Positions 3,171 through 8,930 of a stretch of DNA of 64,000 nucleotides are shown one piece after another. The position numbers and the translations under genes are program-made. Below the pieces are notes generated by a model. That model was not told the DNA's origin. It worked only from the letters and a program-made list of their open reading frames with translations, and did no database searches. The stretch comes from Dictyostelium discoideum (lineage: Eukaryota), in the NCBI GenBank assembly GCA_000004695.1, contig CM000150.2, forward strand, positions 704,001 to 768,000, in the 5' to 3' direction. The number at the start of each line of letters is the position of its first letter. Position 1 is the stretch's first letter.

Positions 3171-3205
<35 letters not shown>

Positions 3206-3584
3206 CATCTTTGATTTACTCTTAGGTTATTAAAATATTCTTATTTTTATATTCCTGATCAACCAAAAGGATCATATATGATTTTTAAACAACCCCTAAA
3301 AAAAAAAAAAATCTCAAATGTAGAAAATCTTATTTTTTTTTTATTTTTTTTTTATTTTTTTTATTTTAATTTACAAAAAACACAAAAAAAAAAAATCAAA
3401 CACAAAAAAGTAAAAAATTTCTGAAACAAAAAAATAAAAAATGCAAATATGAAAAAAGTTTATTGACACGCCTATTGGTGTGAATAAAAGAATTTGTGGA
3501 AAAATCTTTTTAAATTTTTTTAAATAAAATAATAATTATAAAGTCATTATGACAATGGGTAATATTTTCCCCAATTAGATTTAA

Positions 3585-3700
3585 TTTTTTATTTATTTTT
3601 GAAATGATCTTCTTATCACAGTAAGACTTTCTTATAAATTTTTTTTTTAATAATAAACCCATTTATCAAATCATCCAATGATTATTTTTTAAAAGGTTTG
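3585..3700 (+). promoter_or_regulatory. Conserved upstream module U1 (~115-125 bp; core TTTTGCAATGATCCACTTACCACACTAAGACATTC ... AAAATCTCATTTAACCAATCACCGAGGTATT ... AAAAGGTTT), divergent instance upstream of family copy 1
   Basis: Same block recurs at 5396..5520, 6604..6730, 8465..8600 and 8612..8740, each 350-550 bp upstream of a family gene copy. Confidence 0.6.
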
Positions 3701-3740
3701 TTTAATATCAATAAAAAATTATTATTATTATTATTATTAT

Positions 3741-3777
<37 letters not shown>

Positions 3778-3780
3778 CAA

Positions 3781-3895
3781 ATAATTTTTCATTTACTCTT
3801 AGTTTATTAAAATAATCTTTAATTTTGTATTAATAGTTAAGGCCAGGGGAAATCTAGATTAAAAAAACATTATCTTGTAAATTTTAATATCTTAT
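3781..3895 (+). promoter_or_regulatory. Conserved modules U2 (CTCTTAGTTTATTAAAATATTCTTA) + U3 (AGGCCAGGGGAAATCTAGAT...) ~150 bp upstream of the copy-1 ATG; an extra U2 copy lies at 3206..3255
   Basis: Recurs at 6791..6910 and 8788..8896 in the same order and spacing relative to the ATGs at 7088 and 9027. Confidence 0.6.
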
Positions 3896-4044
3896 TTATT
3901 TTTTTTATTTTTATTTTAATTTTTTTTTTTATTTTAATTTTTTTCTTTTTTTTTTTTATTAATATAAATACCTTTTTTTTTTTTTCTTTTTGTCATTATA
4001 AAATTATTAAAATATTTAAAAATAATTAAAATAAAAAAAGAAAA

Positions 4045-4883
4045 ATGAGTGGTGTTGTTGTAACTTTAATTGAAAACGGTCCAGCTATTTTAGGTGCTCT
4101 TAAAACTGGTGCTGGTCTTATCCGTAGCTTTTTCCCAGACAAAACTAAAGATCTTCAAGTAAATATTCACCAATTATTCATATTATTTATAACTAAAATA
4201 AAAAAATAATAAAAAAAATTCTAATTTAAAATAATAATTTTTTTTTTTTTTTTTTTTTTAATAAATAGGATGTTACCTATCGTGTTTATGAAGATGAACA
4301 ACCAAAAGGAAAAGTTAGAGTTATCCTTGTAAACGAATCTAATGGATGGAACAAAGCTAGTAAGTTTATTTATAAATTTTTTTTTTTTTTTTATTTTTAT
4401 TTTTAATCACATAAATTATTAATTAATTAACTTTATCAATTCAAATTATTTAGTTAGACTCTATCATGGTGGTAGTGGATATTCTGAATGTAAAGCAGGT
4501 GATAGCACTGGTACTGTTGCCAAAGGTGATCCACATTTGAAATATTCAATTCAAACAATTGATTTCCCATGGAAATCAGGTGGTCAACAATACATTGCCT
4601 TACAATTATGGAAACCAAAAGCATTAGGTATTTGGTACGATCTTGAAGAAATTAGAATCACTCCAAGTAACCAATCTGATTATGATGGTATGTATTTTTA
4701 AACAAACTATTTATATAAATCTCTTTTATTTTTATTTTTTTTTTTTTCAAAATTCAAATTATCTAACAATAAAAAATTAAAAAATTAAAATCAACAGGTA
4801 AAACATTAGTCTTTTACTGGGGTACTGATGGTTCACCTTATTTCCATAACCCAAATCATTTAATTAAACCATATGAACTTTAA
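4045..4883 (+). CDS. Small-protein family, copy 1 (172 aa). Exons 4045..4158, 4269..4359, 4454..4687, 4798..4883
   Basis: Product: MSGVVVTLIENGPAILGALKTGAGLIRSFFPDKTKDLQ|DVTYRVYEDEQPKGKVRVILVNESNGWNKA|IRLYHGGSGYSECKAGDSTGTVAKGDPHLKYSIQTIDFPWKSGGQQYIALQLWKPKALGIWYDLEEIRITPSNQSDYDG|KTLVFYWGTDGSPYFHNPNHLIKPYEL*. All donors are gtaaat/gtaagt/gtatgt, acceptors ..atag/..ttag/..acag, phases 0/1/1. Nearly identical to copy 2. Confidence 0.8.
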
Positions 4884-5102
4884 AAATTCTTAAAACTCAT
4901 TTCAAATTTATTATAAATAAATGAAACATATTTTAGTTTTAAATATTATTTTTTAATTGTTTGAGAGTATAGGTTTATTTCATGAATTTATTAATTTGGT
5001 TATAATCATATTTATATTTTATTTTTCCAAACCATTACAAAAAATCTGGAAAAATTTGTTTTACCAAAATCTTTAAAAATCATAAAAAAACATTTCCTAT
5101 TG

Positions 5103-5138
<36 letters not shown>

Positions 5139-5395
5139 AAATTAAGAAAATCTTTTTGATAAAATGCTTTTTAAAAAAATAAAAAAAAAGAATTTTTTAT
5201 TGGTAAATAAAAGCAAAAAAAAAAAAAAAAAAATAAAAAAAATAAAAAAAAAGAAATGCAAATGATCAGAAATTGAAGAAAAATTTTTCGAAAAAAGAAT
5301 AGCGAGATTTTGCCTTTTAATTAATAAAAGAGTTTGGGGAAAAAAAAAAAAAAATCTAAGTTTAGGAAAATAACCAATGAAATTTTTTTTTACAA

Positions 5396-5625
5396 AACAG
5401 ATATTATTTTTTATTTTGCAATGATCCCTTCACACACTAAGACATTTTTTTTTTAAAATTTTTTTTTTTTCAAAAATCTCATTTATCCAATCACCGAGAT
5501 GTAATTTTTTAAAAGGTTTTTTATAATATATTTATTTTAATCTTATTATTATTTTTTATTTATTTATTTATTTATTTTTTAAAATTTTCTATCATTTTCT
5601 CTTAGTTTATTAAAATATTTTATCA
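5396..5625 (+). promoter_or_regulatory. U1 + U2 modules of the truncated family unit, fused directly to the 3' end of intron 2
   Basis: U2 (..ctcttagtttattaaaatatt) is immediately followed by atcaattcaaattatttag, which is the intron-2 acceptor region of the intact copies. Confidence 0.55.
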
Positions 5626-5660
5626 ATTATTAATTATCTATATCAATTCAAATTATTTAG

Positions 5661-6133: not shown

Positions 6134-6603
6134 AAATTTTAAAAATTAATCTCAAATTTATTATAAATAAATGAAACATGTTTTAGTTTTATCTTTATTA
6201 TTCTTTATTTATAAATATAGTTTTTTAATTGTTTATTATCTCATAAACTTTTTTTTTTTTTTTTTTCTTAAACCACTCTCAAATTTGGAAAAAATTGTTA
6301 TACCCAAATCTTTGAATTAAAAATTAGTATATAAAAAAAAAATTAAAAAAAAAAAAAAATTAAAAAAAAAAATCTAAATCACTAAATCTTTGAAATTCAC
6401 CAAAAAAAACCTTTCCCAACAAATTTTTTTTTAATTCCAAACGGGTATAAAAATAAATAAAAAAAAAATTATTAAAAAAGATTAAATTTAAAGTTATAAA
6501 AAAAAAATAATTATTTTTTTTTTGCCCAATTTATAAAAAAAAAAAAAAAAAAAAACATCAGAAAGTCAAAAATAACCTATTTCCAGACGGAATTTTTTTA
6601 AAA

Positions 6604-6753
6604 CAGATATTTTTTTTTTTTATTTTGCAATGATCCACTTACCACACTAGGACATTCTTTTAAAAAATTTTTTTTTTGAAAAATCGCATTTAACCAATCA
6701 CCGAGGTATTGTTTTTTAAAAGGTTTTTTATAATATTAAAAATAAATTATTTT

Positions 6754-6793
<40 letters not shown>

Positions 6794-6910
6794 ATCTTTC
6801 ATTTTCTCTTTGTTTATTAAATTATTCTTACTTATTATAATAATTAAGAAAGCCAGGGGAAAAATCTCGATAAGAAAATTATTTTCTAATAAATTTAATA
6901 TCTGATTGTT
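6604..6910 (+). promoter_or_regulatory. U1-U2-U3 cassette upstream of family copy 2
   Basis: Sequence identity to the other cassette instances (see U1 feature at 3585..3700). Confidence 0.6.
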
Positions 6911-6914
6911 TTTT

Positions 6915-6985
<71 letters not shown>

Positions 6986-7087
6986 AGGCCTTTAAAAAGT
7001 ATAAAAAAATTTTTTTTTTTTTTTTTTTTCATTATAAAATTTTAAATATATTCAAATATTTAAAGATAATTTAAATAAAAAAAGAAA

Positions 7088-7394
7088 ATGAGTGGTGTTG
7101 TTGTAACTTTAATTGAAAACGGTCCAGCTATTTTAGGTGCTCTTAAAACTGGTGCTGGTCTTATCCGTAGCTTTTTCCCAGACAAAACTAAAGATCTCCA
7201 AGTAAATATTCATTAATTACTTATTCATAATATAATAATAAAAAATTAAAACTAAAAAAATTTTTTTTTTTTTTTTTAATAAATAGGATGTTACCTATCG
7301 TGTTTATGAAGATGAACAACCAAAAGGAAAAGTTAGAGTTATCCTTGTAAATGAATCTAATGGATGGAATAAAGCTAGTAAGTTTTATTTATAA

Positions 7395-7489
<95 letters not shown>

Positions 7490-7951
7490 AAACTTAATTA
7501 TTAATTTATAATCAATATCAATTCAAATTATTTAGTTAGACTCTATCATGGTGGTAGTGGATATTCTGAATGTAAAGCAGGTGATAGCACTGGTACTGTT
7601 GCCAAAGGTGATCCACATTTGAAATATTCAATTCAAACAATTGATTTCCCATGGAAATCAGGTGGTCAACAATACATTGCCTTACAATTATGGAAACCAA
7701 AAGCATTAGGTATTTGGTACGATCTTGAAGAAATTAGAATCACTCCAAGTAACCAATCTGATTATGATGGTATGTATATTTAAACAAACTCTTTAAATAT
7801 ATCTCATTTTTAATTTTTTTTTCCAAAATTCATATATCTAACAATGTAAAATTTAAAATCTACAGGTAAAACATTAGTCTTTTACTGGGGTACTGATGGT
7901 TCACCTTATTTCCATAACCCAAATCATTTAATTAAACCATATGAACTTTAA
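7088..7951 (+). CDS. Small-protein family, copy 2 (172 aa). Exons 7088..7201, 7287..7377, 7536..7769, 7866..7951
   Basis: Same exon/intron phases as copy 1 and protein essentially identical. Intron 2 contains an 85-nt uninterrupted poly(T) at 7401..7485. Confidence 0.8.
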
Positions 7952-8464
7952 AATTCAAATTTTAAAATTTTAAAAAATTATCTTTAAATTATTATAAATA
8001 AAAGAAACATGCTTTAGTTTTATCTTTATTACTCTTTATTTCTCTTTATTTATAATTTTTTTTTATTGTTTGAGCTTTGGTAAATTATTTCATTAATTTT
8101 TTTTTTTTTTTCGGACGAAAAAATAAATTCCAGGAAAAAAATTTAATTCCTAATTTTTTTAAAAAATCTATGAAATTCAATAAAAAAAAAACATTTCCAA
8201 ATAAGTATTAAAAAAAAAAAAAAAAAAAAAAACCTAAATCAAATTAAAAATGTTATAAAAAAAAAAAAATTTTATTTTATTTTATTTTTTTTTTACACAA
8301 AAAAAAAAAAAAAATGCAAATGACCAGAAAGTTAAGAAAAATTTTTCGAAAAAAAAAAAGTGAGATTTTGCCCTTTAGATTAAAAAAGATTTTGGGGAAT
8401 AACAAAAAATCTAAATTCAGCAAAAATAACCAATTGCTTGACCAATAAATTTTTATTATATAAA

Positions 8465-8895
8465 ACAGATATTATTTTTTATTTTGCAATGATCCACTTA
8501 CCACACAAGGACACTCTTTTTAAAAAATTTTTTTTTTTTTTTTTTCAAAAAAATCTCATTTAACCAATCATCGAGGTATTATTTTTTAAAAGGTTTGTTA
8601 TTTATTATTTTTTATTTTTTTATTTTGAAATGATCCACTTACCACACTAAGACATTCTTTTTAAAAATTTTTTTTTTTTTTTTAAATTTTATAAAAATCT
8701 CATTCATCTAATCATCGAGTTATAATTTTTTAAAAAGGCGATCCTTTTATAAAATATAATTTGTTTAATTTTTTTTTTTTTTATAAACTATCTTCATTTT
8801 CTCTTAGTTTATTAAAATATTCTTATTTTAAGTTAAGGATTAAGGGAAACCAGGGAATCTCGATAAGAAATTCATTATTTTGTAAATATCTGATT

Positions 8896-8896
<1 letters not shown>
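8465..8896 (+). promoter_or_regulatory. U1-U1-U2-U3 cassette upstream of family copy 3 (U1 tandemly duplicated: 8465..8600 and 8612..8740)
   Basis: Sequence identity to the other cassette instances. Confidence 0.6.

Positions 8897-8930
<34 letters not shown>

Follow-up and report, generated by a model that had tools for sequence, protein, structure and literature searches.

Why does each gene of a small tandem family in Dictyostelium discoideum stand behind the same ordered series of short, non-repetitive blocks set in DNA made up of poly(A), poly(T) and (TAA)n? Our study addresses this question in a stretch of 64,000 nucleotides (nt) from chromosome 1 of strain AX4 (GenBank contig CM000150.2, positions 704,001 to 768,000 of the forward strand), called the window from here on, which is extremely A+T-rich and whose genes are spliced. 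The genes in question belong to the uduA family, and the blocks upstream of them are designated OCT, U1, U2 and U3. The syntenic regions of six other genomes (L001 to L006, about 117 kb, or 181 kb together with the window) were used for comparison. Judging from the sequence, it is quite probable that the blocks are the non-repetitive stretches of a putative RNA polymerase II promoter of the uduA genes, which would have been duplicated along with these genes by ordinary tandem duplication.

Organization of the uduA array and its upstream blocks

Three genes of the array are intact; in addition it holds a truncated copy, an orphan promoter and conversion tracts, and all of its genes and blocks lie on the plus strand. 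Exact protein matches in D. discoideum AX4 were obtained for DDB_G0267726 and DDB_G0268332, which are identical to each other, and for DDB_G0267728; the names uduA2, uduA1 and uduA3, respectively, are those of a supplementary table of PMC4506546. Copy 1 (4045-4883; exons 4045-4158, 4269-4359, 4454-4687 and 4798-4883; 174 amino acids) is presumably uduA1 (DDB_G0268332), and copy 3 (7088-7951), which encodes the same protein with three synonymous differences in its coding sequence (CDS), is presumably uduA2 (DDB_G0267726), both assignments being based on the adjacency of gene identifiers. Copy 4 (9027-9821; 175 amino acids) is uduA3 (DDB_G0267728). Copy 2 (5661-6131) is a 5'-truncated gene fragment that consists of exon 3 (5661-5894) and exon 4 (from 6033) only; its stop codon is gone and the frame continues for five codons. 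The similarity between units spans the exons, the introns, the 3' flank and the entire upstream region, both in alignments and in matches to hidden Markov models (HMMs), and families of direct repeats occur at spacings of about 1207, 1875 and 1887-1946 bp.

The blocks follow one order in each unit: OCT, U1, U2, U3, a TATA box with a T-run, and the ATG. They were located with nhmmer profiles built from the copies of the window, which replaced a permissive blastn search that was swamped by low-complexity matches. The 35-nt motif U1a gave three matches at up to three mismatches (6623, 8482 and 8623), the 25-nt U2 gave five (3219, 3796, 5599, 6806 and 8801), and U3 matched exactly at 3840; none of these was expected in shuffled sequences. 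Further and more diverged copies of U1a lie at 3597 and 5415, and a vestige lies at 3141. The placement and the order of the blocks proposed in the original prediction are therefore borne out far beyond chance. No match to OCT, U1, U2 or U3 was found in the rest of the 64 kb outside the array, and in two D. cf. discoideum genomes nhmmer detected the blocks ahead of each family copy and only within the arrays.

Unit 1 begins with a very diverged OCT (3430-3500, with ATGCAAAT at 3441), followed by U1 (3594-3701, nhmmer match), U2 (3796-3820, mismatch-tolerant match) and U3 (3837-3900), whose core CCAGGGGAAATCTAGATTA includes the 10-bp palindrome AATCTAGATT and is located 193 bp before the ATG. 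The TATA box TATAAATA (3963-3970) precedes an oligo(dT) run; here, as in the other two complete promoters, these elements were read from the sequence and are covered by a match to the HMM of the core promoter (CORE). The U1 of this unit constitutes a separate lineage: its identity is 87% with its positional counterpart, the U1 of D. cf. discoideum Y copy 2, and 70-75% with the other AX4 copies. In unit 2, OCT (5251-5391; nhmmer E = 1.9e-36) and U1 (5409-5519; nhmmer match) are followed by U2 (5599-5623), which is fused straight to the 3' end of intron 2: a deletion with its junction at about 5618-5640 removed U3, the TATA box and exons 1-2.

The OCT of unit 3 is a remnant (6447-6599; 77% identity, z = 4.3) with an internal deletion of about 85 bp that removed ATGCAAAT, TTTTTCGAAAAAA and GAGATTTTGCC. 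It precedes U1 (6618-6727; nhmmer match), U2 (6806-6830; mismatch-tolerant match), U3 (6847-6911, with the core CCAGGGGAAAAATCTCGATAAG 224 bp before the ATG) and a TATA box (7000-7007) with its oligo(dT) run. Unit 4 has an OCT (8309-8454; nhmmer E = 8e-41) that is 85% identical to that of unit 2, two tandem copies of U1 (8477-8598 and 8618-8739; nhmmer matches), a U2 identical to the consensus (8801-8825), U3 (8843-8899, with the core ACCAGGGAATCTCGATAAG 170 bp before the ATG) and the TATA box TATAAATA (8946-8953), again followed by oligo(dT). The TATA box and T-run precede each ATG by about 80 bp, and the distances from the blocks to the ATG vary by tens of bp because the homopolymer runs vary in length. 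The expectation that every unit carries the same set of blocks thus holds for their order but not for an identical set, since the OCT of unit 1 is very diverged, that of unit 3 is gutted, and unit 2 retains OCT, U1 and U2 without U3, the TATA box or exons 1-2.

Conservation of the blocks, introns and codon positions

The identity of each segment was calculated for nine intact copies (36 pairs) taken from AX4 and from two genomes of D. cf. discoideum. To correct for the matches that A/T-rich sequences produce by chance, a chance-corrected excess identity was also computed for eight of the nine copies, with 15-28 pairs per segment. Mean identity was 82% in U1, 84% in OCT, 87% in U3 and 88% in U2 (the latter from only 3 pairs), compared with 84%, 81% and 85% in introns 1, 2 and 3, 88% at third codon positions and 92% over the whole CDS. 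The core promoter (TATA box plus T-run), with 88%, was the best-conserved non-coding segment. The chance-corrected excess was 0.42 for U1, 0.51 for OCT, 0.62 for U3 and 0.60 for the core promoter, and 0.41, 0.29 and 0.50 for introns 1, 2 and 3. Taken as whole segments, the blocks do not exceed the introns of their own units in conservation.

These results bear directly on the argument by which the blocks had been regarded as functional candidates, namely that their conservation far exceeds that of the surrounding spacer. The difference exists only because the spacer consists of slippage-prone poly(A), poly(T) and (TAA)n tracts that are unalignable, so that the blocks seem to be conserved islands; as an argument for function it fails, since block identities of 82-88% are matched by 81-85% in introns and 88% at third codon positions. 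The blocks do differ in composition, with a G+C content of 22-24% as opposed to 7-13% in the introns and the core promoter.

Short cores in related species

Outside the D. discoideum complex, the blocks are quickly lost from view. In D. citrinum, OCT was the only block with significant HMM matches (E = 1.5e-6 and 1.9e-5); U1, U2 and U3 were not found by HMM in the D. citrinum loci, and no block was found by HMM in the D. dimigraforme or D. firmibasis loci. Third-codon differences amount to 13-20% for D. citrinum, 20-26% for D. dimigraforme and 25-30% for D. firmibasis.

Short cores persist within the blocks. Thirteen copies, distributed over four species, have the U3 core, ACCAGGG(G/A)A..AATCT(A/C/T)GAT, at 155-230 bp upstream of the ATG; three D. 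citrinum copies and, in a looser form, the D. dimigraforme copy are among these 13, which account for most of the 23 occurrences of ATCT[ACT]GAT in the 181 kb. The perfect palindrome AATCTAGATT is present in the U3 core of uduA1 and of one D. citrinum copy. The 9-mers with at least three G or C that are common to the upstream regions of AX4 and D. citrinum are few and colinear: in order, TTTTGCCC(AAT), CATCAGAAA and TGCAATGAT, then ACCAGGGAA and GAATCTCGA. Among 12 copies of U1, the most invariant columns are AATGAT and CCAATCA, and several D. cf. discoideum copies have another sequence in place of CCACTTACCACAC at the centre of the block.

The likeliest protein-binding sites, as far as motif content can tell, would be these short cores, with U3 first: in U3, the part-palindromic ACCAGGG..AATCT(A/C)GAT(A/T)A; in U1, TGCAATGAT, with which the block starts, and the CCAATCA box; and in OCT, (C)ATCAGAAA and GAGAT(T/C)TT(G/A)CC. 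It is important to consider that the survival of these cores at the present divergence is also compatible with neutral decay.

Expression of the uduA genes and interpretation of the blocks

If the copies share their promoters, they are predicted to be regulated jointly. In wild-type RNA sequencing (RNA-seq), the normalized counts between 0 h and 8 h of starvation fall from about 130 to 0.6 for uduA1, from about 327 to 3.7 for uduA2 and from about 520 to 8 for uduA3 (PMC4506546, Supplementary Data 1), and the three genes are jointly down-regulated in Mycobacterium marinum infection (2026 preprint, bioRxiv 10.64898/2026.09.10.750649). Each copy would be driven by the same promoter architecture, giving joint expression during growth and joint shut-off on starvation and infection, with putative binding sites in the blocks being plausible. 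The blocks had been proposed to be shared enhancer or promoter elements; the general category stands, as the blocks lie in the promoter regions of co-regulated tandem duplicates, although the conservation argument offered for it does not.

Several points weigh against the promoter interpretation as formulated here. First, U3 and the core promoter lie slightly above the intron range after chance correction, so pure neutrality is not established, and constraint on short cores is not measurable at such low divergence. Second, the comparison of blocks with introns is approximate, since intron alignments at about 90% A+T are inflated by chance and the block limits are HMM envelopes, which favour the alignable parts of the blocks. 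Third, uduA1 and uduA2 differ at only 3 sites and are not cleanly separable by sequencing reads, so part of their co-regulation is technical. Fourth, uduA1, uduA3 and sgmD, the presumed name of the gene that flanks the array, are found together in one gene list in Supplementary Data 2 of PMC4506546, and the description of this list as "bound by GtaC" is a reading of the file caption.

The transcription factor GtaC is of interest here: in chromatin immunoprecipitation sequencing it is associated with a GATA-like motif, its DNA-binding domain prefers GATC in vitro, and the expression differences of the uduA genes among gtaC strains follow no simple direction (PMC4506546). As in GATA-factor sites, GAT(A/C) occurs in the best-kept cores, namely AATCT(A/C)GAT(A/T)AG of U3, AATGATC of U1a and AATGA(T/C)CAG of OCT, which makes a GATA-family factor a candidate. 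However, because the spacer is almost devoid of G and C, any motif that contains G must fall in the blocks, and the presence of GAT(A/C) in the cores is therefore a lead and not a test. We tentatively consider that the U3 core and the GCAATGAT core of U1 might be the site of a dimeric GATA-type or other growth-phase factor that silences uduA within hours of starvation or intracellular infection, although we regard this proposal as unlikely.

A stronger role for the blocks would be that of an enhancer or another cis-regulatory module maintained by purifying selection on factor sites across the whole of U1, U2, U3 and OCT. Their higher G+C content, the order that all units keep and D. citrinum shows in outline, the constant position of the U3 core, the invariance of AATGAT and CCAATCA within U1 and the co-regulation of the genes would all agree with such a module. 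Against it, the identity of entire blocks equals that of introns and is not above that of third codon positions; U1 to U3 escape HMM detection in D. citrinum, D. dimigraforme and D. firmibasis despite a third-codon difference of only 13-30%; the centre of U1 has been replaced in several copies; and the gene of unit 3 is intact and expressed though most of its OCT is lost. A module of this kind is possible, but on balance we do not expect it.

At the opposite extreme, the blocks could be neutral relics of a recent duplication, devoid of any regulatory role, with the TATA-proximal core alone driving expression. The equal identity of blocks and introns, the quick decay of the blocks outside the D. 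discoideum complex and the tolerated loss of most of OCT in unit 3 are in agreement with this explanation. It accounts poorly for the colinearity of the U3 core and the short U1a and OCT cores in D. citrinum amid unalignable flanks, and for the position of U3 and the core promoter above the intron range; in addition, the known Dictyostelium regulatory elements lie in G/C-containing islands of upstream regions. We consider complete neutrality improbable, and the interpretation of the blocks as parts of a co-duplicated promoter, with short candidate cores, is the one that we follow below.

Non-coding RNA genes, dispersed repeats and the octamer motif

With lengths of 110-145 nt and a G+C content above that of their surroundings, U1 and OCT have the appearance that small non-coding RNA genes, such as those of Class I RNAs or small nucleolar RNAs, might have between protein genes, and an AUGAUC string in U1 loosely resembles box C. 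Four results make this explanation highly improbable. A scan of positions 2000-10000 against Rfam gave no match at E values up to 10, and at gathering thresholds only two tRNAs were recovered elsewhere in the whole window. The folding energies of U1 and OCT, on both strands, were no better than those of shuffled sequences (z from -0.5 to +1.7). The DUSE motif, which precedes Class I RNA and small nuclear RNA-type genes by about 60 nt, has no counterpart of the form WCCCAYAA ([AT]CCCA[CT]AA) in 2000-10000, and elsewhere in the window it occurs 4 times versus 10.6 expected. Finally, the indels and block replacement among U1 copies give no sign of a maintained helix.

That the blocks derive from a dispersed repeat or a transposable element, pieces of which lie near the genes by chance, is hardly credible. 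U1 is able to duplicate locally (8477-8598 and 8618-8739), but neither the remaining 56 kb of the window nor the flanks of the six related loci (about 117 kb) yielded a copy away from the uduA arrays; order and orientation relative to the gene are fixed; the similarity passes without a break into the other parts of the duplicated unit; and the blocks contain no open reading frame (ORF) of any length with conserved sequence. Within these 64 kb and about 117 kb, U1 and U3 likewise marked no further locus as a possible member of a co-regulated regulon. The ORFs of the intergenic regions are of low complexity and are not common to the units; for example, an ORF of 44 amino acids at 8314-8448 is reduced to 6 codons in unit 2.

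The octamer-like motif to which the original prediction drew attention in OCT carries no weight. ATGCAAAT is present 12 times in the window against 8.3 expected, and 17 of 100 shuffled sequences reach 12. Within the array it is exact at 2654, 3441, 5256 and 8314 and absent from unit 3. It is exact in AX4, as in the metazoan octamer bound by POU-type Oct factors, but it reads ATGCAAAG in D. citrinum. To our knowledge, POU-domain factors are confined to animals. The resemblance is coincidental.

Three features recur in both OCT and U1, namely GCAA(A)TGATC, the stretch TTTTT(C)GAAAAA and the motif CGAG. The possibility that OCT is an old and diverged copy of U1 was rejected, as the scores of local alignments between the two match those obtained with dinucleotide shuffles (z from -0.9 to -0.1).

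History of the array

Special attention was given to the region upstream of copy 1, where the U2 match at 3219 had been taken for an internal duplication of U2. Positions 1872-3416 of the window are colinear with 6766-8196 of L006 (D. cf. discoideum Y), with 73% identity over 1586 nt, and the alignment stops at the ATG of the first family copy of strain Y. In AX4 this gene itself is gone, and at about 3400-3420 the sequence passes straight into the OCT variant of unit 1. The absence of the gene, together with the colinearity, identifies the intervening elements as the promoter of a deleted first family copy, at approximately 2640-3416: an OCT variant (with ATGCAAAT at 2654), a U1a-like piece (3137-3186; U1 HMM match 3141-3186), a U2 with 1 mismatch (3219-3243) and a U3-like remnant (about 3296-3340). 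The U2 at 3219 is thus part of an orphan promoter, and the internal duplication of U2 is not sustained. By contrast, the tandem U1 ahead of uduA3, the last gene, is real, so that internal duplication as a mode of evolution of the cassette applies to U1 but not to U2. In unit 4, the first U1 is most similar to the U1 of unit 3 (94% in pairwise alignment, 90% in the 12-copy alignment), and the second is most similar to the lone U1 that precedes the orthologous copy 3 of D. cf. discoideum Y (86%).

Different parts of the units have different histories. Between uduA1 and uduA2 there are three synonymous differences in 525 nt of coding sequence and the introns are about 90% identical, but U1 to U3 are only 80-85% identical; between uduA2 and uduA3, U1 (94%) and U3 (95%) are close, yet the introns are only 77-89% identical and the gene bodies are more diverged. 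The nearly identical coding sequences of uduA1 and uduA2, behind promoters of different and older lineages, point to a gene-conversion tract that covers the gene body and not the upstream blocks. The number of family copies varies from 1 in D. firmibasis and 1 in D. dimigraforme to 2-3 in D. citrinum and from 3 to at least 5 in D. cf. discoideum. There is a D. citrinum pseudogene at 8758-9263 of L005, and the single D. firmibasis copy (10001-10818 of L001) is inverted relative to the flanking Metallophos gene and the neighbours.

Such behaviour is usual for a tandem array subject to unequal crossing-over, gene conversion and deletion. In the history that we propose, a unit of about 1.9 kb, made up of 3' flank, OCT, U1, U2, U3, TATA box with oligo(dT) run and a four-exon gene, would have been copied head to tail, with the blocks carried along with the gene. 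Four processes may then have reshaped the array: unequal crossing-over, by which the copy number would have come to vary between 1 and at least 5 in related strains and species; gene conversion, which would have made the coding sequences of uduA1 and uduA2 nearly identical while their promoters remained at 80-85%; deletions, of which the orphan promoter, the truncation of copy 2 and the gutted state of OCT in unit 3 would be the traces; and the local duplication of U1 ahead of uduA3.

Long pure T runs were also observed in uduA2, of about 67 nt in the promoter (6917-6983) and about 100 nt in intron 2 (7387-7485). The matching runs are much shorter in the other copies, which indicates a rapid change of length by slippage.

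Comparison with known promoters and arrays

In tandem arrays whose promoters are copied with the genes and which undergo concerted evolution, one finds what is seen in uduA: head-to-tail units, here about 1.9 kb long, that resemble one another in exons, introns and flanks alike, a copy number that is polymorphic among strains, and a mosaic of identity with conversion tracts, truncated copies and an orphan promoter. Nothing essential differs from such arrays; the peculiarity of uduA is that its unique islands lie between very long homopolymer runs, and it is this texture of Dictyostelium sequence that makes the uduA promoter look modular.

The canonical Dictyostelium RNA polymerase II promoter consists of a TATA box, an oligo(dT) stretch before the start site and G/C-containing upstream elements in A/T-rich DNA, a layout for which the work of Kimmel and Firtel from 1983 is reportedly an example source. 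The uduA genes resemble it: some 80 bp upstream of each ATG stands TATAAATA or TATAAAAA with 13-21 T behind it, and G/C-containing islands lie within about 800 bp upstream, a layout recognized here from the nucleotide sequence. The well-studied elements, namely the G-boxes or CA-rich elements of GBF, the TTGA repeats of STATa and the CArG element of SrfA, are not evident in the uduA blocks. In comparison with a CCAAT box of the NF-Y type, the putative box of U1 reads CCAATCA in 7 of the 11 full copies and CAAATCA, CTAATCA or TCAATCA in the remainder. The array also differs from genes of the Class I RNA or small nuclear RNA type in the lack of a DUSE in 2000-10000, and from dispersed repeats in that its blocks are confined to the arrays in the window and the six related loci.

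The UduA protein and neighbouring features of the window

UduA family members were found only in D. discoideum, D. cf. discoideum, D. citrinum, D. dimigraforme and D. firmibasis, and no Pfam domain was identified in the family. The AlphaFold model of UduA (overall pLDDT 74) predicts a beta-sandwich of about 140 residues (pLDDT about 80-90) preceded by 33 N-terminal residues that are modelled as disordered and are rich in Gly and Ala. The best Foldseek matches of this model in the PDB are weak C2- or CBM-like sandwiches only. That UduA is an actinoporin-like protein beside a sphingomyelinase gene was considered and rejected, given that Foldseek found nothing in the PDB at E values up to 1e-3 and that no Pfam domain is present.

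The gene that flanks the array at 1-1850 lies on the minus strand, is transcribed divergently from the array and encodes a Metallophos or acid-sphingomyelinase-like product; its syntenic counterparts in L001 to L006 carry PF00149/PF19272. It is presumably sgmD (DDB_G0268330), a name taken from the gene identifier that adjoins that of uduA1. On the 3' side of the array, a minus-strand gene at 10030-12000, a look-alike of AAA-type ATPases, is syntenic in all the related loci; its long Asn/Gln-coding repeats read (ATT)n and (TTG)n in the plus-strand sequence.

The two tRNA genes of the window are Thr-AGT at 31884-31955 (plus strand) and Asn-GTT at 46032-46106 (minus strand); in Dictyostelium, tRNA genes are typical landing sites of TRE retrotransposons. 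Between 32000 and 42000 the GC skew ranges from -0.26 to -0.46, the AT skew is high and the G+C content is 31-39%, which probably corresponds to one or more large genes on one strand with a biased content of codons or amino-acid repeats.

Implications

Our study suggests a lesson for AT-rich genomes: unique islands among homopolymers seem conserved in recent duplicates whether or not they are functional, and their identity has to be judged by that of introns and synonymous sites in those duplicates. Beyond this, the reach of the present results outside the locus is small. They provide a clean anatomy of the uduA array and a short list of candidate promoter cores for genes that serve as markers of growth, dedifferentiation and the response to infection. 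If the tentative proposal of a growth-phase factor acting at the U3 and U1 cores were true, these cores would represent a new response element of the Dictyostelium transition from growth to development, to be sought upstream of other "udu" genes and growth-phase genes.

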